DNA from: an uncultured Acidobacteriota bacterium
Lineage (GTDB): Bacteria > Actinomycetota > Acidimicrobiia > Spongiisociales > ZC4RG35
Assembly (NCBI GenBank): GCA_963724825.1
Contig: CAVRWT010000003.1
Span: 183,807-247,806 of the forward strand
DNA length: 64,000 bases
Reading direction: 5' to 3'
Position numbers and translations under genes: made by a program. The notes under the pieces were generated by a model. It saw only the letters and a list, made by a program, of their open reading frames with translations. It did not search any database and was not told the origin of the DNA. Shown here one piece after another: positions 5,453 to 28,203 of this stretch; positions within the stretch are counted from its first letter, which is position 1, and every line of letters begins with the position of its first letter.

Positions 5453-5485
5453 GGTGGGTGAGACCCTACGTGCGGACCCGGTCGC

Positions 5486-6397: not shown

Positions 6398-6418
6398 GCC
6401 TGGTGATTCTGCCCGGAT

Positions 6419-7324
6419 TCAGGCCGCAGGCAATGACAAACCGCCAACGAGGTGCTCTTCGTGGTCGGTCACCGGTATCGGGTCCTCGCCGAAAGTGGGC
6501 TCCAGCTCCCGGGCTTCAGCAAGGGTTTCGTCGACCTTCGCCGACACCGCCTCCTCCATGATCGAGCCCACCACGGTGTCACCTGACTGCTCGAGCCGCT
6601 CTCGACGCACCAGCCCGATCAGCACGCCTTGATCGGCAACCGCCAACACCTTCTCGGTGTGGATGCGAAGCGTGTCGTTGGCCTGACGGAGCGGCCCCAC
6701 GAAGACCGGATCACCCATCCAACGGAAGACCCGCTCGGGGGCGCTGCGAACCATCACCGCCCCGGCCTGGGCCTTGCTTCTCAGGCGGGCGCCCGGTCCG
6801 AGCATCGAGCGTTGCAGCCATGACCCACCCGGAGCGCCGAGGACGAGGAGGGAGCCTTCATCGAGATCCTGGGCGAGGCTGCTGATGCCTTCCACGCCCA
6901 CCACCCGCCCCTTGAGTCGCGGGACGACGGCGGCGATGCGATCGAGGGTGAGCTGGGCGGCGGTCGGATCGTCGCCAGGGCCGGCGGCAGACACCATCTC
7001 GGCCTCGACTCCGAGGCTGGCTCCGACCAGAGCGGCAGTTTGGGCGGCGAGGATGGAGTGAGGGCCGCCGGCGACGGTTGCCACCACCCCGGTCACGTTC
7101 TCAGGCACGAAGGCGACCGGAACCGCGACATTGACCAGGTCGAAAGAGCCGGGGAGCTTTCGCGATACGAGCAGATCAGCGCGGTGGCTGATGCAGGCTT
7201 CGACGAGGTCGCCGGTAATGCGATTCGAGTGTGCACCGGCGAGGAGATCGGCCAACTCGGAGCACCCTTTGCCCCTGGTCCACACCACGGAGAACCCGCC
7301 TCCGGCTTGCCCACCGACCGTCAT
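6419..7324 (-). CDS. USP-like domain protein with C-terminal CBS domain (start inferred at 'MTVGGQAGGG')
   Basis: The motif 'LLVLGAPGGSWLQRSMLG' resembles the UspA C-terminal motif. The CBS-like tail is 'VLAVADQGVLIGLVRRERL'. The upstream 82 codons of ORF 6419..7570 look non-coding. Confidence 0.4.
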   Translation of the reverse strand: MTVGGQAGGGFSVVWTRGKGCSELADLLAGAHSNRITGDLVEACISHRADLLVSRKLPGSFDLVNVAVPVAFVPENVTGVVATVAGGPHSILAAQTAALVGASLGVEAEMVSAAGPGDDPTAAQLTLDRIAAVVPRLKGRVVGVEGISSLAQDLDEGSLLVLGAPGGSWLQRSMLGPGARLRSKAQAGAVMVRSAPERVFRWMGDPVFVGPLRQANDTLRIHTEKVLAVADQGVLIGLVRRERLEQSGDTVVGSIMEEAVSAKVDETLAEARELEPTFGEDPIPVTDHEEHLVGGLSLPAA

Positions 7325-7441
7325 TCGTCTCCCTCCATGATCCGCCCCGGCAACGGACTCGATCAACGATAAGCCCTTTGCCGGGCATTGTCCCCGACGC
7401 GCTCCCGACATCATCGTCGGCGTGAGTGACAAGATGGAGCG

Positions 7442-8038
7442 ATGGAGTTCAAAGAAGTGATCGCGGCACGCCGAATGGTGCGCAACTACCTCCCCGATCC
7501 GGTGGCAAAGGAGAGCTTGGACCGCATCGTGGATTCCGGGCTTCGGGCCCCGTCCGCAGGCTTCTCGCAAGGCCTCGGGTTTGTGGTGGTGACCGAGCCC
7601 GAGATGCGTCGGGCGATCGCGGAGCTTGCCGATGAGGCCGAATACGTGGCCAGTGGCTTCGATCCCTGGATCTCACGGGCCCCGGCTCACATCATCATCA
7701 CGGTCAGCGAAAAGGTCTACAGGGACCGGTACCGCGAGCCCGACAAACTCGGGCCGGACGGTGAGGAAATCGAGTGGCCGGTCCCATTTTGGTGGGTCGA
7801 TGCCGGAGCCGCGCTCATGGCGGTCCTCCTTGCGGCGGTAGACGAAGGGCTGGCGGCGGGCTTCTTGGGTGTGCACTCGCTCCCCGACCTCGCCACCCTT
7901 CTCCGGCTGCCACCGGACCACGTTCCGATCGGAGTGGTGACCGTTGGGGCCCCCGCGCCCGATCGCCGGTCGTCGAGCCTCAGTCGTGGCTGGAAGCGGC
8001 GAGACACGGTGGTTCATTCGGAAACCTGGAGCCAATGA
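7442..8038 (+). CDS. Nitroreductase family protein
   Basis: 198 aa beginning 'MEFKEVIAARRMVRNY...', the typical nitroreductase N-terminus; compact single-domain size. Confidence 0.7.
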   Translation: MEFKEVIAARRMVRNYLPDPVAKESLDRIVDSGLRAPSAGFSQGLGFVVVTEPEMRRAIAELADEAEYVASGFDPWISRAPAHIIITVSEKVYRDRYREPDKLGPDGEEIEWPVPFWWVDAGAALMAVLLAAVDEGLAAGFLGVHSLPDLATLLRLPPDHVPIGVVTVGAPAPDRRSSSLSRGWKRRDTVVHSETWSQ

Positions 8039-8811
8039 CTGAGACCGTCATCACCTCGGCGGCCAATCCGCGAATCAAGGCCCTGGTCGGATTGCGCGAT
8101 CGAGGGGCCCGCGACAGCCAGGGCCTATTCGTGGTGGAGGGGCCTCGCCTTCTCGATCGGGCCGTGGACGCCGGGCATCGACCGGTCGAGGTGTTCTACG
8201 ACCCGAATCGATTCGACCCCGGCCGGCTCTCCGAATCCGCCCTCATCGCCTGCTCGTCCGAGGTCCTCTCCCGTGCCTCGTATCGGGCCTCGGACGAGGG
8301 GGTAATCGCCGTGTTCCGCCAGTTCGATCTCGGCCTGAGCGGGCTTTCCCTCGAGGCGGTGCCCATGGTTCTGGTTGCGGAAGGCATCGAGAAGCCGGGG
8401 AATCTGGGTGCGATCTTGCGCACCGCTGACGCAGTCGGCGCCGACGCCGTGATCGTCGTCGATCCCGAGATCGATCCTTTCAACCCCAATGTCGTGCGGT
8501 CCTCGACAGGAGCACTATTCACGGTCCCCATCGCAGTGGCGGGTTTCGATGATGTCGTCGAGTGGCTTCGTGGGGCGGGGATCCGGCTCATCGGCGCGGA
8601 CCCAACCACAGACCGAGATCTCTGGTCGGTCGACCTCAGGGTGCCCTGTGCCCTCCTGATCGGATCCGAGCATGGCGGGCTCACGGACCGAGCCCGGGAG
8701 GCAGTAGATGTGTTGGTGTCGATCCCGATGCGGGGAGCGACCGATTCCTTGAACGCCTCGGTGACCATGGCCCTGCTCGCCTACGAAGCCCTCCGTCAGC
8801 GTCGGGCCTGA
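8035..8811 (+). CDS. TrmH/SpoU family RNA 2'-O-methyltransferase
   Basis: Starts at 'MTETVITSAANPRIK' inside ORF 7774..8811. SpoU motifs 'LVAEGIEKPGNLGAILRTADAVGA' and 'LLIGSEHGGL' are present. Confidence 0.8.
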   Translation: MTETVITSAANPRIKALVGLRDRGARDSQGLFVVEGPRLLDRAVDAGHRPVEVFYDPNRFDPGRLSESALIACSSEVLSRASYRASDEGVIAVFRQFDLGLSGLSLEAVPMVLVAEGIEKPGNLGAILRTADAVGADAVIVVDPEIDPFNPNVVRSSTGALFTVPIAVAGFDDVVEWLRGAGIRLIGADPTTDRDLWSVDLRVPCALLIGSEHGGLTDRAREAVDVLVSIPMRGATDSLNASVTMALLAYEALRQRRA

Positions 8812-8869
8812 GGTCACTCCCCCGTTCACTCCACCCTTGACATCGAACATATGTTCGAGTTAGCCTCGA

Positions 8870-10504
8870 ATGGGCGTGTCTGCCCTGCTCCAGCCCAGTT
8901 TCGACGAGCTCTCCACACCGCTCTACGCAGTCACCTTCTGCGTGCTCGACCTGGAGACCACCGGCGGCTCGGCCAAGGACTGCGCCATCACCGAGATCGG
9001 GGCGGTCAAGTACCGGAGTGGCGAACTGCTGGGCAGTTTCCAGACTCTGGTGGACCCCGGGCTCCCGATCCCTCCCTCGATCACCATCCTCACCGGGATT
9101 TCGGAGGCAATGGTCTTCAACGCTCCCAAGATCGAAACCGCGCTCCCCTCCTTCCTCGAATTCATCGGGGACGCCGTGGTTGTAGGGCACAACGTGCGGT
9201 TCGACATGTCGTTCCTCCAGGCCGCCGCCGGGCGGTTGGGCTATGAGCGCATCGCCAACGACACGGTCGACACCGCCGCCCTGGCCCGCCGCCTGGTTCG
9301 CGACGAGGTGCGAAACCTCAGGCTGCGGACCCTGGCCGCCCACTTCAGGAGCCCGGTGACCCCAATCCACAGGGCTCTCGACGACGCCGAGGCAACCGCC
9401 CATGTGCTCCACGCCCTCCTCGAGAGAGTGGGCAACCTCGGAGTCACCAACCTCGATGACCTACTCCAGCTCCCCAAGGCCCGGGGCTCCGCCTTCTACT
9501 CAAAGATCAGTCTCAGCGAAGGGCTCCCCCGGCGCCCCGGGGTTTACATCTTCCGGGACCGCCACGGCACCCCGATCTACGTCGGCAAGGCGACCAATCT
9601 CCGAGCCCGGGTCCGCCAGTACTTCTACGGCGACGAGCGACGCTCGATTGGGAACTTGATGCGCGAATTGGTGTCGATCGACCATGTGGTCTGCGAGACG
9701 CCGCTCGAGGCCGAGGTCACCGAGTTGAGGCTGATTCATGCCCATCGGCCCCGGCACAACCGGAGGTCGAGGCCGCCGAAGACCTCCCACTGGGTGAAGC
9801 TGACCCGCGAGCCGTTTCCCCGACTTTCCGTGGTTCGCACCCTCAAGGAGGATGGTCTGGCCCATCTCGGGCCATTTCGCTCGAAACAGGCAGCCGACCT
9901 CGTAGTGACTGCCCTGTGGGACGCAACGGCGATTCGCCGATGCCGATCCTCGCCCTCGAAACGAAGCGGCCCGTGCGCGGCGGCACAACTCGGCGTAGCC
10001 GCCTGTCCCTGCGACGGCTCGCTGCTCCCCGGCGACTACCGGCCGATCGTCGAGCAGCTCATCGAAGGCCTCGACCGTGATCCTGCCCTTCTCCTGACCC
10101 CACTGGCCGAGAAGATGGGCCAACTTGCGGATCAACATCGATACGAGGAGGCAGGCTGGCTGCGGGACCGCCACAACGCCCTTTCGCGGGCGATCGAGCG
10201 TCGCCAGGTCTGGTCCGCCCTCAGTGCCATCGGGCTCTGTGAGCTGGAGAGTCGCGACGGCTGCCGGGTGTTGATCGACCACGGGAAGCTGGTGTCGACC
10301 TGGCGGCTGGATCGGACTCCGCCGCTGCGCCCGGCGCCCGAAATCGGCGAGCACGGCAACCGCCAGGTCCCGGAGAGTGTCGAGATCGCCGAGGAAGCCG
10401 ATCTCATTTGGAGGTGGCTCGACACCACCGAGATCCGGCTGGTCGATGCGACCGGGTTTCTGGCGCTCCCTGCTCATCAGGTTCCCCGACTCCGGGCCAG
10501 TTGA
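8870..10504 (+). CDS. DnaQ-like 3'-5' exonuclease (DEDDh) fused to GIY-YIG nuclease domain (Cho/UvrC-N-like)
   Basis: Exonuclease motifs 'FCVLDLETTG' and 'VVVGHNVRFDMSFL' are followed by the GIY-YIG motif 'GVYIFRDRHGTPIYVGKATNLRARVRQYF'. Confidence 0.75.
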   Translation: MGVSALLQPSFDELSTPLYAVTFCVLDLETTGGSAKDCAITEIGAVKYRSGELLGSFQTLVDPGLPIPPSITILTGISEAMVFNAPKIETALPSFLEFIGDAVVVGHNVRFDMSFLQAAAGRLGYERIANDTVDTAALARRLVRDEVRNLRLRTLAAHFRSPVTPIHRALDDAEATAHVLHALLERVGNLGVTNLDDLLQLPKARGSAFYSKISLSEGLPRRPGVYIFRDRHGTPIYVGKATNLRARVRQYFYGDERRSIGNLMRELVSIDHVVCETPLEAEVTELRLIHAHRPRHNRRSRPPKTSHWVKLTREPFPRLSVVRTLKEDGLAHLGPFRSKQAADLVVTALWDATAIRRCRSSPSKRSGPCAAAQLGVAACPCDGSLLPGDYRPIVEQLIEGLDRDPALLLTPLAEKMGQLADQHRYEEAGWLRDRHNALSRAIERRQVWSALSAIGLCELESRDGCRVLIDHGKLVSTWRLDRTPPLRPAPEIGEHGNRQVPESVEIAEEADLIWRWLDTTEIRLVDATGFLALPAHQVPRLRAS

Positions 10505-10546
10505 GCCTGACTTGAGTCTCCCCCATCAGACCATGAGACTTGATCC

Positions 10547-11191
10547 GTGGGTCGTCTCGTCGATCTCAACCAAATAGCGGTCTCCCTGGGCGGGCTCCCT
10601 GTCCTTCGCGACATCGAGCTCGCCGTCGATGCCGGCGAGACCCTCGGGGTGACCGGGCCCAACGGAGCGGGTAAGACCACCCTGCTTCGGGTTCTCGCCA
10701 CGCTCCTGGCGCCTGCCACCGGCTCCGGGACCGTCCTGGGAGCCGAGCTGGGCACGGCTGCCGTCTATCCGGTTCGTCCTCGAATCGGGTTGCTCTCCCA
10801 TCGACCTGCCCTGATCCCCGAGCTGACCCTCGCCGAGAACCTGCGTCACGCCGCCAACCTCTCTGGCATCGAGTTCAGCAAGGCCGAAACCGCGTTGCGG
10901 GTGGTTGGCCTGGACGAGGTGTCTTCGAGGACGGCGGCCGCCAGCTCGTTCGGCATGCTGAGAAGGACTGAGGTCGCTCGGCTCTTGATCACCTCCCCCA
11001 CGATCCTCCTCCTCGACGAGCCGTTCACCGGGTTGGATCTCGAGGCCCAAGAGCTAATCGGGGCCCTCGCCGCTCGGACCACCTCGGGAGGCGGGGCCGT
11101 TGTGATGGTGTCCCACGACTTGGGTCAACTGGCTTCCCACACCAGCCGCTTGCTCACTATTTCCCTGGGCAGGTTGGAGCACGCATCGTGA
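10547..11191 (+). CDS. ccmA: Heme exporter ATP-binding protein CcmA
   Basis: Walker A 'GPNGAGKTT' and Walker B 'LLLDEPFTGLD'; first gene of a ccm cluster. Confidence 0.8.
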   Translation: MGRLVDLNQIAVSLGGLPVLRDIELAVDAGETLGVTGPNGAGKTTLLRVLATLLAPATGSGTVLGAELGTAAVYPVRPRIGLLSHRPALIPELTLAENLRHAANLSGIEFSKAETALRVVGLDEVSSRTAAASSFGMLRRTEVARLLITSPTILLLDEPFTGLDLEAQELIGALAARTTSGGGAVVMVSHDLGQLASHTSRLLTISLGRLEHAS

Positions 11192-11862
11192 GCTTTTGGA
11201 GTCAGACCAAGGAGATCGCACGTGTCGACCTCAAAGTCGAGCGACGCCTCGGGGACACGATGCGCATCGTTCTCCCGTTTGCGGTGGTCGCCCTCCTGGT
11301 GTTCCCCCTCACCCTCGGCGTTGACCTATCGGCCATTTCGCGACTCGGTCCCGCTGTCTTCTGGGCGATCGGGATCCTCTTCGGCATGCAGGTAGCTCTT
11401 CGCCAGGCCGCACACGACGATCAGGAGCGCAGAGACCTCTATGCCCTCCTCGGCGTGGACCCCGCAGCCCGCTTCGTGGGGCGGACCTTGTCGGGGGCAG
11501 TCCTGATGTCCGGATTCCTTGGAGTGTTGTTGGTGGCGATGATCGCCCTCTACAGCCCCGACCTTCCTGCTGGCTGGCTGGGCCCGGTGTTGCTCACGTC
11601 GATCCTGGTCGCAGTCGGGCTCACCGAGTTGGGGACCCTCGCCGGCGAGGTCACCGCCGACCTGCCCAACCGAGCAGGCCTGGCATCGCTGATCATCGCT
11701 CCGCTGGCATTACCCCTCGTCATCGGGGCATCTTCGACGCTGGAAGCAATGACGCGGGACGCCGGTATCCTCCCCTGGATATTGATCCTGGTCGCAACCG
11801 ACCTGGCGCTCGCGGTGGCGGGTGTTGGCCTGGCACGACCGCTCGAGGAGGCGTCAAGATGA
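11188..11862 (+). CDS. ccmB: Heme exporter protein CcmB
   Basis: 224-aa polytopic membrane protein whose start overlaps the ccmA stop; position is conserved in ccm operons. Confidence 0.7.
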   Translation: MSFWSQTKEIARVDLKVERRLGDTMRIVLPFAVVALLVFPLTLGVDLSAISRLGPAVFWAIGILFGMQVALRQAAHDDQERRDLYALLGVDPAARFVGRTLSGAVLMSGFLGVLLVAMIALYSPDLPAGWLGPVLLTSILVAVGLTELGTLAGEVTADLPNRAGLASLIIAPLALPLVIGASSTLEAMTRDAGILPWILILVATDLALAVAGVGLARPLEEASR

Positions 11863-12569
11863 CACGGGTTAGGGTTTTGCTCGCCATCGCCGCCGCAGCC
11901 ATGGGCGTAGGCCTCTGGTTCGCCCTCAGTGCCCCCACAGACACGCTCCAGGGCGAGTTCACCCGGATCATCAACATCCATGCCCCGTCGATGTGGCTCG
12001 CCTTCCTGGCATTCGGATTGACCGCCCTCGGATCCGCAATCTGGCTCATCCGGAAGCAGAGTCGATGGGATCGACTGGCGGAGGCCTCCGCCGAGCTCGG
12101 CGTCATGTTCACCGCGATCGGCCTATTCAGCGGAATGGTCTGGGGCCAGGCGGTTTGGGGGCGGGCCTGGGACTGGGGCGATCCCCGCCTTTCCACTACG
12201 GCGGTGATGTTCTTCGTCTACATCGGCTACCTGGCACTGAGGGCGGCCACCCCTGACCCGACGGTGCGGGCAAGACGTTCGGCGATCCTCGGGATCATCG
12301 CCGTGGTCCAGGTCCCCTTGGTCTATTTCTCAGTCAACATGTTTCGCACTCTCCACCAGACGCAGTCGATTCGCCCCGACGGGATCACCATGCCTCGGGA
12401 GATGGCCATCGCCATCTTCGTGAACGTCATCGCCTTCACCATCGTCTACATCGCCCTTCTCGTGGCGAGGATCGACGTCGCCAAGGCCGAAGAGAGGGCG
12501 GCCGCTGATGTCGCGCTCGCCGGAGACACGGTCAAACCACCTCGCTTGTCGGAGGTCAAGGATGTCTGA
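11859..12569 (+). CDS. ccmC: Heme exporter protein CcmC
   Basis: Trp-rich WWD motif 'WGQAVWGRAWDWGDPRL'; 236 aa. Confidence 0.85.
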   Translation: MTRVRVLLAIAAAAMGVGLWFALSAPTDTLQGEFTRIINIHAPSMWLAFLAFGLTALGSAIWLIRKQSRWDRLAEASAELGVMFTAIGLFSGMVWGQAVWGRAWDWGDPRLSTTAVMFFVYIGYLALRAATPDPTVRARRSAILGIIAVVQVPLVYFSVNMFRTLHQTQSIRPDGITMPREMAIAIFVNVIAFTIVYIALLVARIDVAKAEERAAADVALAGDTVKPPRLSEVKDV

Positions 12570-12666
12570 TGAATTGATCGTGTTCGGGACGTTCCTGATC
12601 TCGTATGGCGTCATCGTCGGGTACGCCGCATATCTCCACCTCCGACGGCGCCGAGCCGGGAACTGA
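12562..12666 (+). CDS. ccmD: Heme exporter protein CcmD (about 34 aa, not in the ORF track)
   Basis: The ATG overlaps the ccmC stop (ATGTCTGATGA). It encodes 'MSDELIVFGTFLISYGVIVGYAAYLHLRRRRAGN', a single TM helix with a basic tail like CcmD. The exact stop is uncertain by about 1-3 nt from my reading. Confidence 0.55.
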   Translation: MSDELIVFGTFLISYGVIVGYAAYLHLRRRRAGN

Positions 12667-12669
12667 CCT

Positions 12670-13077
12670 GTGGCCCATCGCCGGTTCGTGCTTCTCGGCA
12701 TTGCCGGGGTGATCGCCATAGTGGTCGGGCTCACGGTCACCAGCCTCGGGGAGAACCTCACCTACTACCTCTACCCCACCGAGGCCGTTTCCCAGCGCGC
12801 CGACTTTCCCGACGGTGAGCGGTTTCGACTGGCGGGGACGGTTGTTGCCGGAACGATGACGGAGTCCGAGAACGAGGTGACCTTCGACGTGACCGATGGC
12901 GGCGCCACGGTTCCGGTGGTTCTCACCGAAGCCGCCCCTGATCTCCTCACCGAGGACGTCCCGGTGTTGCTCGAAGGCGCCTGGTCGGGAGATGAGTTCG
13001 TTGCCGACGACGTTCTGATCCGACACGACGAGAACTACGTGACCCCCGAGCAGGGCGGGGCCTACCCGGCCAACTGA
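12670..13077 (+). CDS. ccmE: Cytochrome c-type biogenesis heme chaperone CcmE
   Basis: N-terminal TM anchor followed by an OB-fold region. The heme-binding His motif 'VLIRHDENYV' matches LxxHDExY. Confidence 0.8.
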   Translation: MAHRRFVLLGIAGVIAIVVGLTVTSLGENLTYYLYPTEAVSQRADFPDGERFRLAGTVVAGTMTESENEVTFDVTDGGATVPVVLTEAAPDLLTEDVPVLLEGAWSGDEFVADDVLIRHDENYVTPEQGGAYPAN

Positions 13078-15095
13078 TGCTCTCCTTGCTCGGCACTCTG
13101 GGTGTCCTCGCCGCCCTCGTCGGGTCGCTGTTGCTCATCGTTCGCGGGATCTCCAACGCCAGGGGGCGGTCGGCGGATCTGGTCGGCCCGGGACGACTGA
13201 TGCTCGGTGGGGCGATTGCGGCGATGGCGGCGATGCAGATCGGCCTGCTCACCGACAACTTCACCCTCGCCTACATCGCGAACCATCACTCGACAACGAC
13301 ACCGTTCCCGTTCGATGTCGCGACCGCGTGGGCGGCCCTCGAGGGCTCGATCATCCTCTGGGGTCTGATCCTCGCCGGCTTCACCTGGGCCGTCCTCGGC
13401 AGATACCGACGCTTTCCCGACCCGTTGGGAGCAGCTGCCCTTGCGGTGTTGGGCGGTATCGGGATCTTCTTCTTCGGATTGATGATCACCGTCGCCAACC
13501 CATTCGAAGTCTGTGTCAGCGCCCTGACGTCGGGGTGCGGCGCCTCTAGCCCGTGGCCGCTTGCGGCCGCGGACGCACCACTCAACGGTCCGGGCCCCAA
13601 CCCGCTCCTTCAAAACCACATCCTGATGGCGATCCACCCGCCAATGCTCTACCTGGGATACGTGGGCCTCTCGGTGCCGTTTGCCTACGCCATCGGGGCA
13701 CTGGCGCTGGGGATGCCGGGGCCGGAGTGGCTCAGGCGCAGCCATCGCTCGACGCTGGTCGCCTGGTCCTTCCTCACCGTTGGCATCACACTCGGTGGAT
13801 GGTGGGCGTACGAGGTCCTCTCCTGGGGCGGATATTGGGCATGGGATCCGGTGGAGAACGCATCCTTGATGCCCTGGCTGATTGCCACCGCCTTTCTCCA
13901 TTCCGGTCTGGTCCAACAGCGGCGCGGCATGCTCCAGGCCTGGAATTTCGTCCTGGTGATCTCCGCGTTCTCATTGACCATCCTCGGGACGTTCCTCACC
14001 CGATCGGGGACCATCAACTCGGTCCATTCCTTCACCCAGTCTGCGATCGGGCCGGCCTTGCTCGGGTTCCTGGTCCTGGTGCTCGTCGGCTCGTTCGCCT
14101 TGTTCACGATGAGAGCGCACCTGGTCGCTTCCTCGCCCCGCATCGAGAACTTCGTATCCCGGGAGGGGCTGTTCCTGGTCAACAACCTCCTGCTGGCAGT
14201 CTTCGGGTTCGTGGTTCTGATCGGGACCACCTATCCCCTGCTGGTGGAGGCGTTCACCGGCACCCAGGTCGGGGTGGGTGAGCCGTTCTTCAACCGCCTC
14301 GCCGTGCCTCTCAGCTTCTTGCTCCTGTTGGTCATGGGCTTCGGCCCGGTAACGCCGTGGAGAGGGGCGCCGCCCGGGCTGTTGTGGCAGCGCCTGCGCT
14401 GGCCGGCGCTGCTCGCCCTCGCGGTCGGCGTCACCACCGCCACCCTGGTCACCAGGCTGGGTTGGGTGGTCCTGGCCGTGGTCTTGGGGACCTTCGTGGC
14501 CACCTCGATCATCGGGCTGCTGATCGAGATGACGTCCACCCGTGCCAGGAAGACCGGACTCTCGTTCTTCGCCGAAGTGAAGACGGTGGTCGGAGCCGAC
14601 CAACCCTTCTGGGCTGGACAGCTCAGCCATCTCGGAGTCGTCCTGGTGGCGATCGGCATCGCATTTGCCTCCAACCTGGCCAGTCACAGCACAGTGGATC
14701 TCGAGCCGGGTGACAGTGTCGACTTCGTCGGGTACACCATCACCTACGAGTCTCCGTTCCGACGGGTCGAGCCGAACCGGGTCGTCGAAGGAGCCCGGCT
14801 GACCATCATCAAGGGTGACCGGGTAGTGAGTGAGCTCGAGCCGAGGGTCAATCTCTACGGGCCGGACAGCTTCGCTGTCTTCACCCCGGCCGTGATGAGC
14901 AGGCCCGGAGGTGACCTCTACGTGACCCTCCGTTCACTTGATTCGACCCAGGTGAGTTTGAACCTGGATACCAGCCCGCTGGTGTGGATGCTCTGGCTGG
15001 GGGGTCTCACCACCGCGGCAGGAGGCGCCTGGTCGTTGGCCGCCCGAAGACGGGAACGAGCCACCGCGCTCGAGCGTCAAAGCGCCGATGTCTGA
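13077..15095 (+). CDS. ccmF: Cytochrome c-type biogenesis protein CcmF
   Basis: 672-aa polytopic protein with the WWD domain 'WGGYWAWDPVENASLMPWL'. Confidence 0.9.
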   Translation: MLSLLGTLGVLAALVGSLLLIVRGISNARGRSADLVGPGRLMLGGAIAAMAAMQIGLLTDNFTLAYIANHHSTTTPFPFDVATAWAALEGSIILWGLILAGFTWAVLGRYRRFPDPLGAAALAVLGGIGIFFFGLMITVANPFEVCVSALTSGCGASSPWPLAAADAPLNGPGPNPLLQNHILMAIHPPMLYLGYVGLSVPFAYAIGALALGMPGPEWLRRSHRSTLVAWSFLTVGITLGGWWAYEVLSWGGYWAWDPVENASLMPWLIATAFLHSGLVQQRRGMLQAWNFVLVISAFSLTILGTFLTRSGTINSVHSFTQSAIGPALLGFLVLVLVGSFALFTMRAHLVASSPRIENFVSREGLFLVNNLLLAVFGFVVLIGTTYPLLVEAFTGTQVGVGEPFFNRLAVPLSFLLLLVMGFGPVTPWRGAPPGLLWQRLRWPALLALAVGVTTATLVTRLGWVVLAVVLGTFVATSIIGLLIEMTSTRARKTGLSFFAEVKTVVGADQPFWAGQLSHLGVVLVAIGIAFASNLASHSTVDLEPGDSVDFVGYTITYESPFRRVEPNRVVEGARLTIIKGDRVVSELEPRVNLYGPDSFAVFTPAVMSRPGGDLYVTLRSLDSTQVSLNLDTSPLVWMLWLGGLTTAAGGAWSLAARRRERATALERQSADV

Positions 15096-16089
15096 GCGTC
15101 GGCTCAACACTCTTTTCATTGTCGCCATCGCCGTCCTGGCGGTAGCCCTTGGCTTCATGATCTCCACGCGGCCGGTCGACGTCGATCGTGCCCAGGAGAT
15201 AGGGGCCCGGATCAGGTGCCCGGTCTGCCAGGGCGAATCGATAGCCGACTCACCGTCGCAGATGGCGCAGGACATGATGGCCCTCATCACCGAGGAGGTA
15301 GCCCAGGGCGCCACCGACGCCCAGATCATCGATCAACTCCTCTCTTCGTACAGCGGCGCCGTCCTGCTCGACCCGCCGGCATCCGGGGCCACTCTCTGGC
15401 TCTGGCTTGCGCCGCTGGCCGCGATCGCAGTCGGGGTCACCGTCATCCTCTGGTGGCGGGGCCACCCCGGCACGAGCGAGGAGACGACCGCAGAGCCAAG
15501 AAGCAAGAAGCGCCTGCTCATAGGGGGCGTGCTCCTGGTGGCGATGTTTGCCGTCATCGTCGGTGTCGCCGGGAACTTCCTCCAAGAGCGTGAAGGAGCC
15601 ACGGAAGGGGTTGCCGATCTCGGCAACCAGGACCTCTCACAGGTGAGCAACGAGACGATGGAGGCGGTGATCGCAGCCAACCTCGACAACCCGCAGATCA
15701 ACGGGATGCGAATGGCCCTTGCCGAGCGTTACTACGAGGAGGGCGATTACCGGGCTGCTTTCCCCCACTATCTGGCCGTTGCGCAGAGTGAGACTGCGAC
15801 CAGCACCGAGGCCGCCGGGGCCCTCACCCGTCTCGGTTGGATGGCCTTCGAGGGCAACGGCGAAGTGGATACTGCCCTCAATCTCCTCGACCAGGCCCTG
15901 GCCATCGAACCCGACGCTCCGGTCGCCCTCTACCTGAAAGGGCGGGTCCAGTGGTGTGGGGCCGGGGACACCGAAGCCGCGATAGCCCTATTCGACGAGG
16001 TCCTCGCCAACCCGTCCTTGCCCGACGACTCACGAACCGAGATCGAGGCAGACCTGGAGCAGGCGACCGCCGGAGAGGCGTGCACATGA
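15088..16089 (+). CDS. ccmH: Cytochrome c-type biogenesis protein CcmH with C-terminal TPR (CcmI-like) domain
   Basis: 'RCPVCQGESIADSPSQMAQDM' matches the CcmH LRCxxCQ motif. A TM segment and a TPR-like C-terminus follow. Confidence 0.75.
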   Translation: MSERRLNTLFIVAIAVLAVALGFMISTRPVDVDRAQEIGARIRCPVCQGESIADSPSQMAQDMMALITEEVAQGATDAQIIDQLLSSYSGAVLLDPPASGATLWLWLAPLAAIAVGVTVILWWRGHPGTSEETTAEPRSKKRLLIGGVLLVAMFAVIVGVAGNFLQEREGATEGVADLGNQDLSQVSNETMEAVIAANLDNPQINGMRMALAERYYEEGDYRAAFPHYLAVAQSETATSTEAAGALTRLGWMAFEGNGEVDTALNLLDQALAIEPDAPVALYLKGRVQWCGAGDTEAAIALFDEVLANPSLPDDSRTEIEADLEQATAGEACT

Positions 16090-16131
16090 ACGGGCGCGTG
16101 TCTGAGGTGGGTCGGGATCGGCGTCATCGCC

Positions 16132-16680
16132 GTGACCGTGGTCCTCGCAGTGGTCCTTGCCTCTCGATTCGGGACCGACCCCGGGCTGGTCGACTCCCCG
16201 TTGATCGGGCACCCCGCGCCCGACTTCGACCTGGAGACGCTTGACGGGACCGGCCGGCTGGCGTTGGCCGACCTGAGTGGTGACATCGTCGTGGTGAACT
16301 TCTTTGCGTCCTGGTGTCTGGAATGCCGCAACGAGCACAGCGACCTGGTTGCAACCTCAGACTCGTTCGCCGAGGACGATGTCAGCTTCGTCCAGATCGC
16401 ATACCAAGAACAGCCCGAACAGTCCCTCGCCTACCTTGCCGAAGCCGGAACTTCACCGGCAACCACGTACCTGGCCGATCCCGGCAGCCGGACCGCCATC
16501 GCGTATGGCGTCTATGGCATCCCCGAGACCTTCTTCATCGACCCCGAAGGGACGGTTGTCGGAAAGATCATCGGCCAGGCCGACGCTTTGACCCTGGGTG
16601 CCACCATCGACGCAATCAAGAGAGGCGAGAAACCCGGCCAGCAGGTCACCGGCGACACCCAGCAGCGCCCCGACAGCTGA
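16132..16680 (+). CDS. ccmG: Thiol:disulfide interchange protein CcmG/DsbE (TlpA-like thioredoxin)
   Basis: Thioredoxin active site 'FFASWCLECRNEH'; the cis-Pro region 'YGVYGIPETFFID' follows. Confidence 0.8.
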   Translation: MTVVLAVVLASRFGTDPGLVDSPLIGHPAPDFDLETLDGTGRLALADLSGDIVVVNFFASWCLECRNEHSDLVATSDSFAEDDVSFVQIAYQEQPEQSLAYLAEAGTSPATTYLADPGSRTAIAYGVYGIPETFFIDPEGTVVGKIIGQADALTLGATIDAIKRGEKPGQQVTGDTQQRPDS

Positions 16681-16691
16681 CCTGCCATCGT

Positions 16692-18089
16692 TCAGTCGGG
16701 GCGGATGACCTCGACAGTCACCTCCTCGAAACTGGCCGTGTCCAAAGCAGCCGATCCCGTCTCCAACAAGAAGACATCGAAGAATCCGAGGACATAGCGA
16801 TCGACGATCGGGATCACCCTTCCGGCCGGAATGGTGCCGGTGAGCCCGAGTTGCTCGCTGATCGGCGACCAGAGTGGGGCCACGGTGAAGTCGCTCTGCA
16901 CGGTGCCATCCACTCCGATCCAATAGGTCACGTTCTCACTGCGCTCGGCGATGCCCCTGAGCACGGCGTCGTTCTCATTCGCCTGCCACTCCTCCGACCT
17001 CATGAACAGCGCCGGACGGGTGGCCGATGCCGAAATCGTGCGGTCAGGGATCGGCTCGACCCAGGGATCGAGGCCGAGCACGGCATCGCATCGCTCGTCC
17101 ACGAGGCAGACCTCGACCGCCGCCCCACCGCCGATCGAGTTTCCGTAGATGCCGATCTTGCTCACATCAGCGCTGGCGGCCAGGGCACCGAACGGTCCGT
17201 CACCTCCCAGGTCGAGGGCGTCCAGGATCGAGGTCAGGTCGGCAACGTAGACGTCCATGAGGTTGGCGCTGGCCTCCGCATACGCCTCCTCGCCGGCGTC
17301 CGCCTCGTCCGGGAGGGCCTCAGGGTCGTAGGGCACCACATCGCCATTCTCGAAACGGGTGGTCACCGCCGAGTAGGTGTGGTCGGGGGCAACGACGATG
17401 TAGCCGTGGCTGACCAGATTCTCGATCTGATTCACAGTGATCGCCCGGAAGCCGGTCCAGGCGTGGCTGTAGATCACAATGGGAAACGTGCCTTCGGCGA
17501 CAGGCAGTGACACCGTCGCGTGCGACGGCGTGTATCGGGTGTAATTGAGGAACCAGCCCGGATAGCCGAGCAGCAGTGAGAGCGCCGGTGCCACCACGTC
17601 CCAGTCCTCGGCCCACACGGTTGGCTCGACCTCGTTCGACGGCACGGCCGGGTACCAAACCTGGACTCGCAGCTTGCGAGGCCCACCGGGAACCGCCCCG
17701 TAGGTCTCCTGTCGGTCCACATCGACCAGATCGAAGGTCACGGTCCCAATTGCCTCCGGACCGGATGGCAAGGGAAGCTCGGGCACCGGAAGCACCAGGG
17801 GCAGGATCGCCGCCAGGCCAACACCTGCGACGCCGAAGATCCCACGAGCGATCCGACTCGTCCAATCCAATCGACGCTCGACGACGATGATGTCGCCGAT
17901 CGCAAGGCCGAGACAGACCCCGTAGAGCGGGAGCATCTGCCATCGCAGGCCCTCCACGCGCCAATGGACGATGAACAACACGAGAAGCACGAGAGCGACG
18001 ATTCCTCGCCGGGTGCGGACTCCGAAAACTGCCGGCCAGCCGACGGCAAACAGGGCGCCGAAGACCATGAGCAGTTCGAATCGCCTCAC
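16692..18089 (-). CDS. Membrane-anchored alpha/beta hydrolase (PAF-acetylhydrolase/lipase-like)
   Basis: N-terminal TM helices, then 'IYSHAWTG' and 'GNSIGG' serine-hydrolase-like motifs; 465 aa. Confidence 0.55.
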   Translation of the reverse strand: MRRFELLMVFGALFAVGWPAVFGVRTRRGIVALVLLVLFIVHWRVEGLRWQMLPLYGVCLGLAIGDIIVVERRLDWTSRIARGIFGVAGVGLAAILPLVLPVPELPLPSGPEAIGTVTFDLVDVDRQETYGAVPGGPRKLRVQVWYPAVPSNEVEPTVWAEDWDVVAPALSLLLGYPGWFLNYTRYTPSHATVSLPVAEGTFPIVIYSHAWTGFRAITVNQIENLVSHGYIVVAPDHTYSAVTTRFENGDVVPYDPEALPDEADAGEEAYAEASANLMDVYVADLTSILDALDLGGDGPFGALAASADVSKIGIYGNSIGGGAAVEVCLVDERCDAVLGLDPWVEPIPDRTISASATRPALFMRSEEWQANENDAVLRGIAERSENVTYWIGVDGTVQSDFTVAPLWSPISEQLGLTGTIPAGRVIPIVDRYVLGFFDVFLLETGSAALDTASFEEVTVEVIRPD

Positions 18090-18131
18090 CGGCGCCGCAA
18101 CCTCAGTTCTCCATCGATTCCGTCAGCAGGC

Positions 18132-18524
18132 TCAGCCCTGGGAGAGACGTCCCGGGATCTTGGTGCCTTGGTGGAAGATCACCTGCCAGCGACCTTCGTC
18201 CCTGACCCACACCGAGCTCCGTCGGGCTTCATTGCCTTCTCCAACCGAGCGATAGCTGACCAAGCAGACGTCCGCTGACAGCATCCGGGCATCGAAATCC
18301 CGAATCGTGATCTGCCCCGAGGTCTCCCGGTTCATCATCTTGATCATGGTGTCCCGGTCGTAGACCCGGCCCGAGCTCCCGAATTCCTTGAATTGGGAGT
18401 GGAGGAGCAGTTCAACCGCAACCCTGGAATGCCGGACCTCGGGGTCGAGGAGCATCCTCTCCAGATCGAGCAACTCGTTCTGAGATCTGGTCTGTTGTCG
18501 GCTGAGTCGGTTCTGGTCTGTCAT
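18132..18524 (-). CDS. SnoaL-like/DUF4440 (NTF2-fold) protein; start inferred at 'MTDQNRL'
   Basis: About 130-aa NTF2-like pattern. The upstream part of ORF 18132..18632 would overlap the divergent + gene. Confidence 0.45.
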   Translation of the reverse strand: MTDQNRLSRQQTRSQNELLDLERMLLDPEVRHSRVAVELLLHSQFKEFGSSGRVYDRDTMIKMMNRETSGQITIRDFDARMLSADVCLVSYRSVGEGNEARRSSVWVRDEGRWQVIFHQGTKIPGRLSQG

Positions 18525-18573
18525 TGCCTGCCAGTTCGATGTCGGGGCGTCCTTCGAGGCGCCTGACTTTACG

Positions 18574-19215
18574 GTGCTCAGATCCCGGGGCAAGAGCGAC
18601 TTGAACGGGCCTGACCAAAAGGCCCGGTACAATCCGGTGCCCGTGCCGAGAACGACGCTGTACTTCGCCTACACCGCCTTCCTGGATCCCGACCGACTCC
18701 ACGCCGTGGCTCCGGGTGCCAGGTTCGCATTCACCGCTCATTTTCCGGAGACCAAGCTCGCCTTCGTCCATTCCGAGGAAGTGGGGGCTGTCCCCTCCCT
18801 CGTCCCCGATTCGGGTCACACAGTGTGGGGGGGCGTGTTCGAGATCCCGGACGACCAGGTCTCGTCACTGACCGGGGCCGAGGAAGCCGAGGGCCGGGTG
18901 GCAGGTTGGGATCAGAAGGCCGTTGATCGCGAGGGCAACAAGTACGACTGCCTGACGTTCGTGGCCAAAGGCTCACCGAACGGCGAGCACCGACCCGACA
19001 GCGACTATCTCGAAGTCGATGATCAGCGGCGCCCGTCATTGGGCCCTGCCCGCAGGCTGGGTGATGGGTCTCGAGGACCTTGGAGAAGATTCTTTCTTCT
19101 CTTAGACCTCGACCCGGGATGTCGCATCGGCGGCCGGTACCGAGAACAACCGGTACAGGCCGTAGGCGATGAGGCTCCCCACCAACGGGAAGACGATGTA
19201 TACCCAGAGTTGTGA
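18574..19215 (+). CDS. Gamma-glutamylcyclotransferase-like (AIG2/GGCT fold) protein; true start probably near 18640
   Basis: 'TTLYFAYTAFLDPDRL' matches the GGCT 'YFAYGSN' motif. The 3' end overlaps convergent aqpZ by about 110 nt. Confidence 0.45.
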   Translation: MLRSRGKSDLNGPDQKARYNPVPVPRTTLYFAYTAFLDPDRLHAVAPGARFAFTAHFPETKLAFVHSEEVGAVPSLVPDSGHTVWGGVFEIPDDQVSSLTGAEEAEGRVAGWDQKAVDREGNKYDCLTFVAKGSPNGEHRPDSDYLEVDDQRRPSLGPARRLGDGSRGPWRRFFLLLDLDPGCRIGGRYREQPVQAVGDEAPHQREDDVYPEL

Positions 19216-19776
19216 GAGCGCCGTCGATGATCCGGAGACCACGGCAGGAGCGAAGGACCGCGCCGGGTTCACCGACGCTCCCGAGAACGGAATGCCTGCG
19301 ATGTGGACGCCGACCAGGGTTAGGGCAATCGCCAGAGGTGCGTTACCCGGATTGCGCTTGGTCACCGCCAGGATCACCCACACGAAGACCGCCGTGAGCG
19401 CCACCTCGACCAGGATTCCCGTCGACAGCTTGTTGTACGTCGTGACAGTCGACTCCACAGCCACCCGGTTCGAGGCAGCCCACACCACCAGCGAGGCGAC
19501 ACCGGCTCCGGCGAACTGGGCCACCCAGTAGCCGATAGCGTCACTGAAACTGGTTCGGCCATCCAGGAGCATGGCCAGTGTGACCGCCGGGTTGAAATGG
19601 GCACCGGAGACGTGGCCCACAGCCCAGATCCCGGCGAGAAGGGCCAGGCCGAAGCCGAGACCCACGGACACCAGGATCGGGCCCTCGGTGGCGAGGTTGG
19701 CGAGAATCGCCATCGAGCCGAAGAACACCAGGATGAAGGTCCCCATGAACTCGGCGAGGTACTTGTTGATTACCAC
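19102..19776 (-). CDS. aqpZ: Aquaporin Z (MIP family water channel)
   Basis: Two NPA boxes, 'HFNPAVT' and 'SVNPARS'; 224 aa, six-TM pattern. Confidence 0.9.
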   Translation of the reverse strand: MVINKYLAEFMGTFILVFFGSMAILANLATEGPILVSVGLGFGLALLAGIWAVGHVSGAHFNPAVTLAMLLDGRTSFSDAIGYWVAQFAGAGVASLVVWAASNRVAVESTVTTYNKLSTGILVEVALTAVFVWVILAVTKRNPGNAPLAIALTLVGVHIAGIPFSGASVNPARSFAPAVVSGSSTALSQLWVYIVFPLVGSLIAYGLYRLFSVPAADATSRVEV

Positions 19777-19902
19777 GAGGTATTCCTCCCTAAAGGGGTC
19801 TCTAATTGGACACGGGTCGGTTTGCGGAGGTTTCTGCCCTTTCAGGCTATTTCGCGATCTCGCGACAACCTCGGATTTCCAACAGGCGACGCGCGAAATA
19901 GC

Positions 19903-19930
19903 GAGAGGGCTCCCGTTGGGGAGCCCTCTC
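19903..19930. terminator. Perfect 12-bp hairpin GAGAGGGCTCCC-GTTG-GGGAGCCCTCTC between rnpB 3' end and aqpZ
   Basis: Seen directly in the sequence. Not followed by a U-run, so it is a candidate factor-independent-like terminator or processing hairpin. A second inverted repeat, CTATTTCGCG...CGCGAAATAG (about 19847-19901), flanks it. Confidence 0.35.
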
Positions 19931-19934
19931 CACG

Positions 19935-20310
19935 TCTGCGAGCCCGTCTGTAAGCCGGATTCTGTCTAGGACGACCATCCATCTTGGCGCACCGTTGCCG
20001 TTGCGCTCATGCGGCCTACCCGGGACTTGATCGGCGGGCCACCGACGTCCCTGTTTGGCCTTGCTCCCGGTGGGGTTTGCCGAGCCACCCCGGTTGCCCG
20101 GGATGCTGGTGAGCTCTTACCTCACCGTTTCACCCTTGCCTGTTCCCGCAAGCGGGCCATCGGCGGTCTGCTCTCTGCTGCACTTTCCGTCGGGTCACCC
20201 CGCCTGGGTGTTACCCAGCACCGTGCCCTGTGGAGTCCGGACTTTCCTCGATCTTGCGACCGCGGCCGTCCGACGGGCTCACCATCGGGATTCTACGGGG
20301 CCGGCCGCTT
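19935..20310 (-). ncRNA. rnpB: RNase P RNA (bacterial type A), approximate ends
   Basis: The minus strand carries the universally conserved P4 strands. AGGAAAGUCCGGACUCC is the reverse complement of + 20231-20250. ACAGAAUCCGGCUUACAG is the reverse complement of + about 19951-19969. The 280-nt spacing matches a roughly 375-nt M1-type RNA. Overlapping + ORFs (20009..20725, 20055..20450, 20230..20589) are spurious. Confidence 0.75.
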
Positions 20311-20667
20311 GCGTCTACCGGCGAGCCATCCCGCTCCACCCGCCACCACCACGGCGACGAGGGCCAACCCGAGCACCGAGCCGGTCCCCGCTGTGCTCCC
20401 CCCGAGACTGGCAACCACGATGTACACCCCTGCAAGAAGCAGTCCGGTGACCGCGCCATGGAACCGCTCCGAGTGCGGTGCCAGGTGCCCCGCAACCCAG
20501 CCCCCAACCGCAAAGCCCAGAATTATCCCAATCAAAAGGCCGGCATCCGGTGTCTCAGCCCCGGCCAGGCTGAGCAGGAAGCTGAATAGAAAGGCGGCGA
20601 CCGTCGCCGTCAAGCCCCCAGCGCCGACACCCAAGCCCAGTGCGACGATGTTCAGGGCTGCAAGCAT
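20293..20667 (-). CDS. Hypothetical small membrane protein
   Basis: 124 aa with 3-4 predicted TM helices and a basic C-terminus. Its 3' end slightly overlaps the estimated 5' end of rnpB. Confidence 0.35.
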   Translation of the reverse strand: MLAALNIVALGLGVGAGGLTATVAAFLFSFLLSLAGAETPDAGLLIGIILGFAVGGWVAGHLAPHSERFHGAVTGLLLAGVYIVVASLGGSTAGTGSVLGLALVAVVVAGGAGWLAGRRKRPAP

Positions 20668-20688
20668 GTTGAGGCGATGTTGGCAGGC

Positions 20689-22131
20689 TCAGGTGATCGA
20701 GAGTCGAGCCTTCCACGATCTCTGAGCCGACCGCACCTCGACAAAGGCCTGCGTGAGACGCACGCGTTCGATCTTGCCCAACTCGCCTACACGCACCTGT
20801 TCGTCAATCGTCTCGCCGGCCTTCCAACGCCGCAATTGATGGAGGAGGCGCACTTCCGTCAGCACCTCGAACGCCTCTTCGAGCGCGGAGGCCTCCTCGG
20901 GATCAACCACAGAGGCGACCGCTGCCGCCTGCAGTCGCCCCCGCGTGGAAGTGGAGGTGCTGCCCGCCTCGATCCCGAATAGGCGTCCAAACTCGGTGAG
21001 GGCACGCAGACCCCCAGCCTTGACGTCCACTCGACCACCCTTGGCAACGAGACGGGACCCGAAGCGTCGCAGGGGCGTGTCGTGTTTCACGGTCAACAAG
21101 GCGAGTCGGTGGACGAACGGGATTTGATGACGTGCGAGCTCCAAGGCATCTCCCAACACCGCGTCGCCGGGGAAGGACCCTGCGATCTGTCGGAAGTCGA
21201 ACACGATCTCGGTCATGAAGGCACGCTCCAGGCCGGGCTCCATGATCCACCTGCGAGTCCGCTCTATCCAGATCTCCGCAGGCAACCGCCATCCAGGCTC
21301 GGATGCCATGACCCCCGATTCGCAGCGGGGAATCCCACAGGCTTCCAGCCCAGCGACGACTCGTGATGCCAGATCGGCGAAATAGGGGTCCTGTTCGACA
21401 TCTTCGAAGACGAGGGCGTGGTCCTGGTCGGTTGCGATCGCCTGCTCGCGTCGGCCTTGGCTGCCCAGAGCCATCCAGGCCCAGCCACACGGCGCCGATC
21501 CGATGTCGTCTTGGGCGTGTTCGAGGAGTCGTCTCGTGAGACTGTCCGTCACGAGGCTTCTGACCTCAGAGGCACGAATCGGGCTCAGGCCGGCGCTGAC
21601 TATCGCGGCCAGCGCCGCCGGCACGTCTCTGGCGACCTCCGCCAGAGCCGATGGAGTGGTCGCCTCCGCTATCTCGCTCATCATTCGAAAGGGCTGGAGT
21701 GCCTCAGCACCAAGTATGTCGAAGTGGGAGATCAGCCCTACCAGGCGATGGCCATCCATCACGGGGAGGTGGTGATGATTGGTGTGAAGCATGTCCATGA
21801 CCACGTCCTCGACCAAGCGATCCGGGGTGACGACGTGCGCATTCCGGCTCATCACCTGCGAGATCGGGCCTTCACCCGAAAGCCCTGCCGCAACGACTCT
21901 GTGCCGAAAGTCTTCATCGGTGACGATTCCGATCTCATCCCCGTCGCGCACCAGGATCGCCGTCGATCCGGCGACACCCATCAGACGGGCGGCGTCGGCA
22001 ATCGTGGTGTCGGGCAGGCATTCAGGCACCGTCCGAGCCAGGTCGGCGGCATTCTGCAATCTGGGAGCCGCGATCACGTCTGTGTCAAGACTAAGTCCAG
22101 CTTCGGCGCGACATACGATGCGGCCAGCCAA
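20689..22131 (-). CDS. CBS-pair + DUF294 putative nucleotidyltransferase signal-transduction protein
   Basis: Two CBS-like segments ('GIVTDEDFRHRVV', 'LVGLISHFDILGAE') are followed by a DUF294-type nucleotidyltransferase region ('WAWMALGSQGRREQAIATDQDHALVF'). Confidence 0.6.
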   Translation of the reverse strand: MAGRIVCRAEAGLSLDTDVIAAPRLQNAADLARTVPECLPDTTIADAARLMGVAGSTAILVRDGDEIGIVTDEDFRHRVVAAGLSGEGPISQVMSRNAHVVTPDRLVEDVVMDMLHTNHHHLPVMDGHRLVGLISHFDILGAEALQPFRMMSEIAEATTPSALAEVARDVPAALAAIVSAGLSPIRASEVRSLVTDSLTRRLLEHAQDDIGSAPCGWAWMALGSQGRREQAIATDQDHALVFEDVEQDPYFADLASRVVAGLEACGIPRCESGVMASEPGWRLPAEIWIERTRRWIMEPGLERAFMTEIVFDFRQIAGSFPGDAVLGDALELARHQIPFVHRLALLTVKHDTPLRRFGSRLVAKGGRVDVKAGGLRALTEFGRLFGIEAGSTSTSTRGRLQAAAVASVVDPEEASALEEAFEVLTEVRLLHQLRRWKAGETIDEQVRVGELGKIERVRLTQAFVEVRSAQRSWKARLSIT

Positions 22132-22133
22132 TC

Positions 22134-22844
22134 ATGATCGAGTTTCTCGCCTCTGTGCCATCACTTCTGGTGGCATCCGACTTCGACGGCACCCTCAGTG
22201 AGCTGATCGATGACATTCTGGCTGCCACGCCCCTCCCCCGATCGCGGGACGCCCTGAGCCGATTGGCGGGGACACCGGGAACCCATGTCGCCATCGTCTC
22301 GGGGAGGCGCCGCTCAGACCTCGTCGAGCGCTTTCCTGACAGGCGACTGATCCTGATCGGCGAGCATGGCGCCGACGCCGGTGGGGGTGTCCAGACCGAG
22401 GCTCCGGTACTCGACGCGGTGCGGGGCCGGATCAGCGAGCTCGGAGCCCAGGTCCCCGGCTCGGTTGTCGAGCAGAAGAACCACTCAGTCGTGTTCCACT
22501 ACCGAACAGCACACGATTACGTGTCGGCGGTGGATGAGATACGTCGGATGGCTGCGGATTCGGTGGGTATCACGCTGCTGGACGGAAAGAATGTCCTCGA
22601 GTTGACCGACTCCACCACCAACAAGGGAAAGGCGATATCGGCCCTGCGCCTGTCCCTGGCCGCCGGCCACGTCCTCTTCATCGGGGACGACGTCACCGAT
22701 GAGACGGTGTTCGCCACACTCCGCCCGCCGGACGTGACGGTCCATGTCGGCAGCGGGCCGACTGCGGCCCAATTCAGCGTTCCCGACGTGGAGGCGGTGG
22801 CCGACCTCTTGGAAGCCTTGGCCACGGCACGGGAGGGCATCTGA
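22134..22844 (+). CDS. otsB: Trehalose-6-phosphate phosphatase (HAD-IIB)
   Basis: HAD motifs: motif I 'LVASDFDGTLSE', 'HVAIVSGR', and the 'GK...DSTTNKGKA' / 'LFIGDDVTDE' pair. Confidence 0.7.
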   Translation: MIEFLASVPSLLVASDFDGTLSELIDDILAATPLPRSRDALSRLAGTPGTHVAIVSGRRRSDLVERFPDRRLILIGEHGADAGGGVQTEAPVLDAVRGRISELGAQVPGSVVEQKNHSVVFHYRTAHDYVSAVDEIRRMAADSVGITLLDGKNVLELTDSTTNKGKAISALRLSLAAGHVLFIGDDVTDETVFATLRPPDVTVHVGSGPTAAQFSVPDVEAVADLLEALATAREGI

Positions 22845-28180: not shown

Positions 28181-28203
28181 GAAGGCCGGAGGGTAGCGGT
28201 GGC

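Follow-up and report, generated by a model that had tools for sequence, protein, structure and literature searches.

The 64,000-nucleotide stretch of contig CAVRWT010000003.1 analysed here (the window; contig positions 183,807 to 247,806, from an uncultured bacterium placed by GTDB in the Acidimicrobiia) carries an operon for System I cytochrome c maturation (ccm). We are confident that this is a standard System I (Ccm) operon, native to the chromosome of an Acidimicrobiia bacterium and inherited vertically within the class. The original prediction had recognised a complete System I operon in an actinobacterium, had presented it as an oddity and had offered either lineage-specific retention or horizontal acquisition as its source. 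Retention is borne out, whereas a recent acquisition is contradicted by collinear flanks, codon usage and the placement of CcmF in an actinobacterial clade. The operon also loses its standing as an oddity, as close relatives routinely carry ccm genes. It represents a textbook system and is nothing unusual in its class.

Relatives were surveyed using one genome per GTDB species, keeping the best 80 loci by CcmF match, and are cited below by locus number. About 56 of these 80 loci belong to Actinomycetota, mostly Acidimicrobiia, including Microthrixaceae, Iamia and Acidimicrobiaceae. At the protein level, more than 120 protein clusters are 70-93% identical to the window CcmF, and all of those with a named source are labelled Acidimicrobiia or Actinomycetota; the exact window CcmF itself has no entry in the public gene index. 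In relatives of the type represented by L081 (ERZ25039492 contig_18338), L001 (JBBDQO010000083) and L009 (DATDPP010000031) CcmF is 85-93% identical, and their operons have the same genes, gene order, flanks and protein lengths as the window (214, 224, 236, 135, 672 and 333 amino acids). L081 is collinear with window positions 3743-23014 at ~81% nucleotide identity and encodes the same 333-residue CcmH architecture, L009 is collinear with 7074-21023 at 76% identity, and L001 and L007 are also collinear around the operon. The upstream flank common to the collinear relatives encodes a SpoU methylase and a DEDDh/GIY-YIG exonuclease, and the downstream flank a PAF-AH-like hydrolase, a DUF4440 protein and an aquaporin. 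The host had originally been called actinobacterial from a WhiB gene at 56680. This gene (56680-56994, reverse strand) matches PF02467 at 4.5e-14 and, together with the 14-19 kb of collinearity with Acidimicrobiia metagenome-assembled genomes (MAGs) around the operon, upholds an actinobacterial, Acidimicrobiia-like host.

Composition does not set the operon apart from its surroundings. Its relative synonymous codon usage correlates with that of the remaining window genes (r = 0.977); in a null distribution from blocks of 7 contiguous window genes the mean is 0.976, with values from 0.951 to 0.988. GC content at third codon positions (GC3) is 0.78-0.84 in the operon and 0.785 +/- 0.037 in the other genes, and overall GC is 0.650 in the operon against 0.637 in the window. 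By both checks the operon equals its neighbours. The phylogenetic comparison was made for CcmF, with a neighbour-joining (NJ) distance tree of the 77 full-length sequences among the 80 nearest hits, and in it all Actinomycetota form one clade (88% bootstrap). Gemmatimonadota, Acidobacteriota, Myxococcota, Deinococcota and Chloroflexota sequences fall outside this clade. Given the shared flanks, the native codon usage and GC3, and the monophyletic actinobacterial CcmFs, there is no sign of recent transfer.

Two groups within the actinobacterial clade, A and B, are each supported at 100% bootstrap, and they differ in operon type, as surveyed by tblastn of eight window proteins against the 80 loci. 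Clade A (sampled in L001-L031) has the order ccmABCDEFHG, which is found in the window, in every hit whose CcmF identity is 47% or more, among them four members of the class Actinomycetes, and in ~20 further species. Clade B (sampled in L028 and L034-L074), which includes Acidimicrobiales, Iamia and Acidimicrobiaceae, has the order ccmABCDEFGH, and its F-G-H order is common to Gemmatimonadota, Deinococcales and others. The four Actinomycetes with a complete clade-A ccmABC(D)EFHG operon are the isolates Haloechinothrix sp. LS1_15 (L017), Tersicoccus phoenicis (L023) and Amycolatopsis ultiminotia (L024), and a MAG, Pseudonocardia sp. 73-21 (L027). CcmF identity in these four is 47-51%, and they group beside a Microthrixaceae sequence (78% bootstrap). 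These lineages, in which System II would be expected, may have received the operon from Acidimicrobiia, and its presence in them means that System I is not confined to deep-branching classes. One further clade-A locus, L022, is labelled uncultured Gemmatimonadales, and both its CcmF and its F-H-G operon nest beside L016; this is probably a mis-binned contig or, failing that, an inter-phylum transfer.

All the Ccm functions lie in a single co-directional block at 10547-16680, as had been claimed, with eight genes on the forward strand (Table 1), seven of which have Ccm family matches. The tight packing is also confirmed, the junctions measuring -4 (A/B), -4 (B/C), -8 (C/D), +3 (D/E), -1 (E/F) and -8 (F/H) nucleotides. 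A promoter and terminator scan of positions 8600-17000 found no promoter-like sites; the two terminator-like sites are fewer than in shuffles (4.2 +/- 2.3), and the scan is uninformative.

Table 1. Genes of the ccm operon in the window.
Gene	Positions	Strand	Product and remarks
ccmA	10547-11191	+	214 amino acids, GTG start; ATPase of heme-release ABC complex
ccmB	11188-11862	+	224 amino acids; ABC complex membrane subunit
ccmC	11859-12569	+	236 amino acids; WWD heme-handling protein loading CcmE
ccmD (putative)	12562-12666	+	34 amino acids, MSDELIVFGTFLISYGVIVGYAAYLHLRRRRAGN; single transmembrane segment, Arg-rich tail; by direct reading
ccmE	12670-13077	+	135 amino acids; His-type heme chaperone, membrane-anchored
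ccmF	13077-15095	+	672 amino acids; holocytochrome c synthase core
ccmH-TPR (CcmI-like) fusion	15088-16089	+	333 amino acids
ccmG	16086-16680	+	DsbE-type thioredoxin; one-base insertion ~16102; uninterrupted open reading frame body 16132-16680

CcmA matches PF00005 (ABC_tran) in Pfam at 5.6e-27 and TIGR01189 in NCBIfam with 133 bits (cut-off 131.6), has Walker A (GPNGAGKT) and Walker B (LLLDEP) motifs by direct reading, and is 75% identical to its counterparts in L001 and L009 by tblastn. CcmB exceeds the cut-off of PF03379 (57.3 against 24.9 bits) and falls below that of TIGR01190 (37.8 against 156 bits), and is therefore a divergent protein. CcmC (PF01578, 4.5e-28; TIGR01191, 8.5e-43), CcmE (PF03100, 1.5e-21, 77 bits; NF009727, 1.7e-25) and CcmF (PF16327, 4.3e-64; PF01578, 1.7e-34) are identified by the same two databases, the last from Pfam. 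The predicted fusion of CcmH to a TPR domain is present in one protein, with PF03918 over residues 11-137 (7.4e-29, 100 bits) and a C-terminal TPR region at ~210-310, in which TPR_14, TPR_16 and TPR_19 match over residues 245-308 (TPR_14 at 253-286, 30.1 bits against a cut-off of 23.5). CcmG matches TIGR00385 (dsbE) at 3.5e-27 with 95 bits (cut-off 123), and the Redoxin and AhpC-TSA families also match.

The catalytic motifs expected of System I are retained. Direct reading confirms the predicted heme-binding histidine motif of CcmE, H119-DEN-Y123, behind an N-terminal transmembrane (TM) segment, and finds RCPVC at residues 43-47 of CcmH and both WCLEC (61-65) and the cis-Pro motif GIPETF in CcmG. 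The WWD domains claimed for CcmC and CcmF were likewise recovered. CcmC aligns with Escherichia coli CcmC (7f02_C) at 2.6e-21, keeping the WWD segment and both histidine contexts: the paired segments are IHAPS and LHVPA, WGRAWDWGDPRLS and WGTWWVW-DARLT, and TLHQT and TLHQG. In this alignment H41, WGRAWDWGDPRL and H166 correspond to the H60, WWD and H184 contexts of the E. coli protein, in the literature numbering. CcmF aligns over residues 3-660 with Thermus thermophilus CcmF (6zmq_A) at 3.7e-118. Its WGGYWAWDPVE segment (250-260) and H187, H275, H317 and H518 are invariant in the 77 homologues, and N261 is kept in 76 of them.

The original prediction included a 34-codon ccmD missing from the open reading frame (ORF) list. 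The ORF, its size, its one TM segment and its conservation stand, and no profile matches it. The frame overlaps the ccmC stop by 8 nucleotides and is 43-82% identical in L001, L002, L003, L005, L007, L008 and L009 (tblastn). Among loci where both ccmC and ccmE could be located, most have between the two a small ORF with one TM segment and a basic, Arg-rich tail, and this holds across phyla. The assignment as a putative ccmD is thus supported by position, size, topology and conservation in relatives. In public gene calls the ccmC-ccmE gap is without annotation in L081 (9492-9594) and L082 (2447-2566), so the short ccmD is systematically missed in this lineage.

The last gene, ccmG, differs from its relatives at the 5' end. 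In L081, L001, L009 and L007 it starts at an ATG or GTG overlapping the ccmH stop (ATGA), and the L081 protein (MNGRALKWVGIG..., 197 amino acids) has a full membrane anchor. The window keeps the ATG at 16086 but has one extra base at ~16102 compared with these four loci, and pairwise comparison with L081 finds no other indel to compensate for it, so that the start and the first ~5 codons are out of frame with the gene body. The first in-frame start is then the GTG at 16132, which leaves ~12 hydrophobic residues, and the ORF start at this position is an apparent truncation artefact. Past the insertion the gene body closely resembles that of L081 and keeps both the CxxC and the cis-Pro motif. 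Stop-codon read-through was considered, as ccmH and the ccmG body share a frame here, and was rejected: the relatives use different frames and an ATGA overlap, and the window departs from them by one inserted base. Three other loci in the window are broken in a similar manner. An ABC-ATPase/CBS gene (4336-5452, reverse strand) has an uncompensated one-base insertion at 4743 and is a single 362-amino-acid product in L081; a luciferase-like monooxygenase is divided between 25283-25849 and 25834-26268 (forward strand), its Pfam positions 4-145 and 185-312 falling in separate frames; and a proline racemase is divided between 29151-~29430 and 29461-30138 (forward strand), with positions 1-90 and 103-324 in different frames. 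Such split genes suggest either an indel-prone assembly or several pseudogenes. With four broken genes in 64 kb and well-conserved gene bodies, the ccmG insertion is most likely an assembly indel error and not gene decay.

Several findings weigh against a complete and inherited operon. As sequenced, ccmG is without a start codon and half of its membrane anchor. The ccmD ORF has no profile match in Pfam (E <= 10), NCBIfam or PDB (searched with a 26-sequence profile), nor do its relatives in other phyla. Pfam searches of the ~55 ORFs in the window found neither a gene for a c-type cytochrome substrate nor CcdA/DsbD, and the only CxxCH match is in the zinc-ribbon domain of the protein at 27473-29173 (reverse strand). 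The taxon names of the relatives are labels given by the submitters of the MAGs, and the CcmF tree is without an objective root and without alpha- or gammaproteobacterial or archaeal sequences. If the ccmG frameshift were real, the operon could be decaying or non-functional in this organism, with System II doing the work. The uncompensated insertion relative to four relatives fits such decay, but in the remaining seven ccm genes the frames are intact and the catalytic residues invariant, the ccmG body has kept its similarity to L081 together with its motifs, and at least three unrelated window genes (insertion at 4743; 25283-26268; 29151-30138) are also split, which fits sporadic assembly indels; decay is improbable. 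It is still harder to credit that the contig is not actinobacterial, through mis-binning or mislabelled relatives. All of the close relatives are indeed MAGs named by their submitters, and L022, within clade A, bears a Gemmatimonadales label. Against this, the same contig encodes a WhiB-family protein (PF02467), the same class name comes from several independent MAG projects, and Haloechinothrix, Amycolatopsis, Pseudonocardia and Tersicoccus are found in the same CcmF clade. A non-actinobacterial origin was rejected on synteny, codon usage and WhiB. Just as remote is a recent horizontal acquisition by this organism from a Gram-negative donor, for which only the textbook tie of System I to Gram-negatives speaks (PMC9145763, PMC13170271). 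Codon usage and GC3 of the operon are indistinguishable from those of its neighbours, the nearest CcmFs are all from Acidimicrobiia, the operon borders show no integrase, transposase or tRNA, and the same flanking genes (DEDDh/GIY-YIG exonuclease, PAF-AH-like hydrolase) accompany it in species at 68-81% nucleotide identity. Recent transfer is refuted by this conserved synteny; codon usage also counted in its rejection.

Whole-pathway transfer between phyla is said to have been proposed by Goldman and Kranz in Mol Microbiol in 1998, and a single ancient acquisition by the Acidimicrobiia ancestor, followed by vertical descent, would mean that System I is not ancestral to Actinomycetota. Such an event is rather unlikely, yet it is the likeliest of the rival readings. 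Model Actinomycetes use System II according to reviews (PMC9145763, PMC13170271), and the actinobacterial CcmF clade adjoins Gemmatimonadota and Acidobacteriota at only 40-43% identity. The data indicate no donor, however, and clades A and B, though separated by a deep split, are monophyletic, so that a transfer would predate diversification of the class; for this window it is operationally equal to vertical inheritance. Owing to the sampling and rooting of the tree, an ancestral actinobacterial system and one ancient transfer to the Acidimicrobiia stem are not separable. Vertical inheritance within the class is common to both. We propose tentatively, and with slightly more doubt than belief, that System I is the ancestral and sole pathway of the Acidimicrobiia, with one old origin, a split into F-H-G and F-G-H types, and export to a few Actinomycetes such as Pseudonocardiales and Tersicoccus.

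The likely workings of the operon can be outlined from its motifs and the established model for E. coli, Rhodobacter and Thermus. CcmC, together with CcmD, would use its WWD domain and two histidines to present heme at the outer side of the membrane, and the heme would be loaded covalently onto His119 of membrane-anchored CcmE. ATP hydrolysis by CcmA2B2 would then release holo-CcmE. CcmF (WWD, P-His1/2, TM-His1/2) and CcmH are predicted to accept this heme together and to attach it by two thioether bonds to the apocytochrome CxxCH motif, while the TPR domain of CcmH may serve as a CcmI-type apocytochrome chaperone, in the manner of the CcmH fusion of E. coli. CcmG (WCLEC) and CcmH (RCPVC) would hold the CxxCH cysteines reduced, presumably with reductant from a CcdA/DsbD whose gene lies elsewhere.

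The window has the same components as System I of E. coli and Rhodobacter (CcmABCDEFGH and CcmI; CcmABCD structure PDB 7f02 and others). These include CcmE of the HxxxY type, CcmC with WWD and two histidines, CcmF with WWD and four histidines, and CxxC motifs in both CcmH and CcmG, and E. coli CcmH is also fused to a TPR/CcmI domain. Differences are the order F-H-G in place of F-G-H, most of the window Ccm proteins scoring below the NCBIfam equivalog cut-offs (CcmB 38/156, CcmC 146/186, CcmF 386/569), a host that is presumably a monoderm actinobacterium, and a putative CcmD of 34 amino acids that profiles do not detect. E. coli CcmD has 69 amino acids. The best solved relative of the window CcmF is the near full-length match from T. 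thermophilus (6zmq), a member of a different phylum, and Deinococcales CcmFs, only 37-42% identical, lie outside the actinobacterial clade. The closest counterparts, the Acidimicrobiia operons, differ from the window in having an intact CcmG that starts from the ATGA overlap (197 amino acids in L081), where the window has its one-base insertion.

System II (ResB/CcsB and ResC/CcsA, CcdA and ResA; Mycobacterium, Corynebacterium, Bacillus) makes the same end product, heme attached to an extracytoplasmic CxxCH. The WWD family is common to both systems, and the window CcmC and CcmF match TIGR03144 (CcsB) weakly, at 2.6e-12 and 1.5e-11. In contrast to System II, the window has CcmE and CcmABD, which define System I, and Pfam found no ResB (PF05140), CcsA/ResC-type WWD protein or CcdA among the ~55 ORFs scanned. 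The archaeal or variant System I* (CxxxY CcmE, no CcmH) was rejected on the HDENY motif of CcmE and the presence of CcmH. A dedicated lyase of the NrfEFG type was also rejected, since ccmABCDE lies directly upstream of ccmF and no plausible c-type cytochrome gene is found in the window.

Some relatives do have multiheme cytochrome genes (4-9 CxxCH) beside ccm, namely L011 (4063-4575), L012 (9933-12489), L018 (2995-4869) and L031 (6759-8309). In L011, L012 and L018 the ccmF-H-G module is without adjacent ccmABCDE, the L011 contig beginning at ccmF, and these modules resemble a dedicated lyase set of the NrfEFG style. In L031 a divergent ccmABCE lies upstream of ccmF. Outside the operon, L081 has a ~2-kb insertion (16876-18940) absent from the window at ~19940-19966, which encodes an LPXTG (Gram_pos_anchor) protein and a phage-type integrase. 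The window also encodes secreted-looking proteins with SLH domains at 41287-42096 and 43010-44413 (forward strand) and 49773-52628 (reverse strand), one with He_PIG/Ig-like repeats and another with a 951-amino-acid beta-helix, and near them a family 2 glycosyltransferase (46146-47132). This cluster is probably an S-layer or cell-envelope locus.

For this window alone the result is of little consequence, as the system is a textbook one and is already named by standard annotation pipelines; in practical terms, the inserted base in ccmG and the three further split genes warn of indel errors in this assembly. Its wider interest lies in the distribution. In reviews (PMC9145763, PMC13170271), System I belongs to alpha- and gammaproteobacteria or to many Gram-negatives, and System II is the pathway of Gram-positives and mycobacteria. 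Public annotation already names CcmF, CcmE and others in many Acidimicrobiia MAGs, and our search of the accessible literature found no paper linking Acidimicrobiia or Actinobacteria with ccm or System I, and no statement that System I is the sole or ancestral pathway of the Acidimicrobiia. System I occurs in at least 50 species-representative genomes of Actinomycetota, mostly Acidimicrobiia, as two operon types and with a few cultured Actinomycetes among them. This distribution corrects the simplified rule of the reviews, that System I is Gram-negative and System II Gram-positive, a correction of modest value. If System I does prove to be both ancestral and sole in the class, a whole class of Gram-positive Actinomycetota would depart from the assignment of System II to Gram-positives and mycobacteria. 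Tersicoccus phoenicis and Amycolatopsis ultiminotia are cultivable entry points to System I in an actinobacterial envelope.

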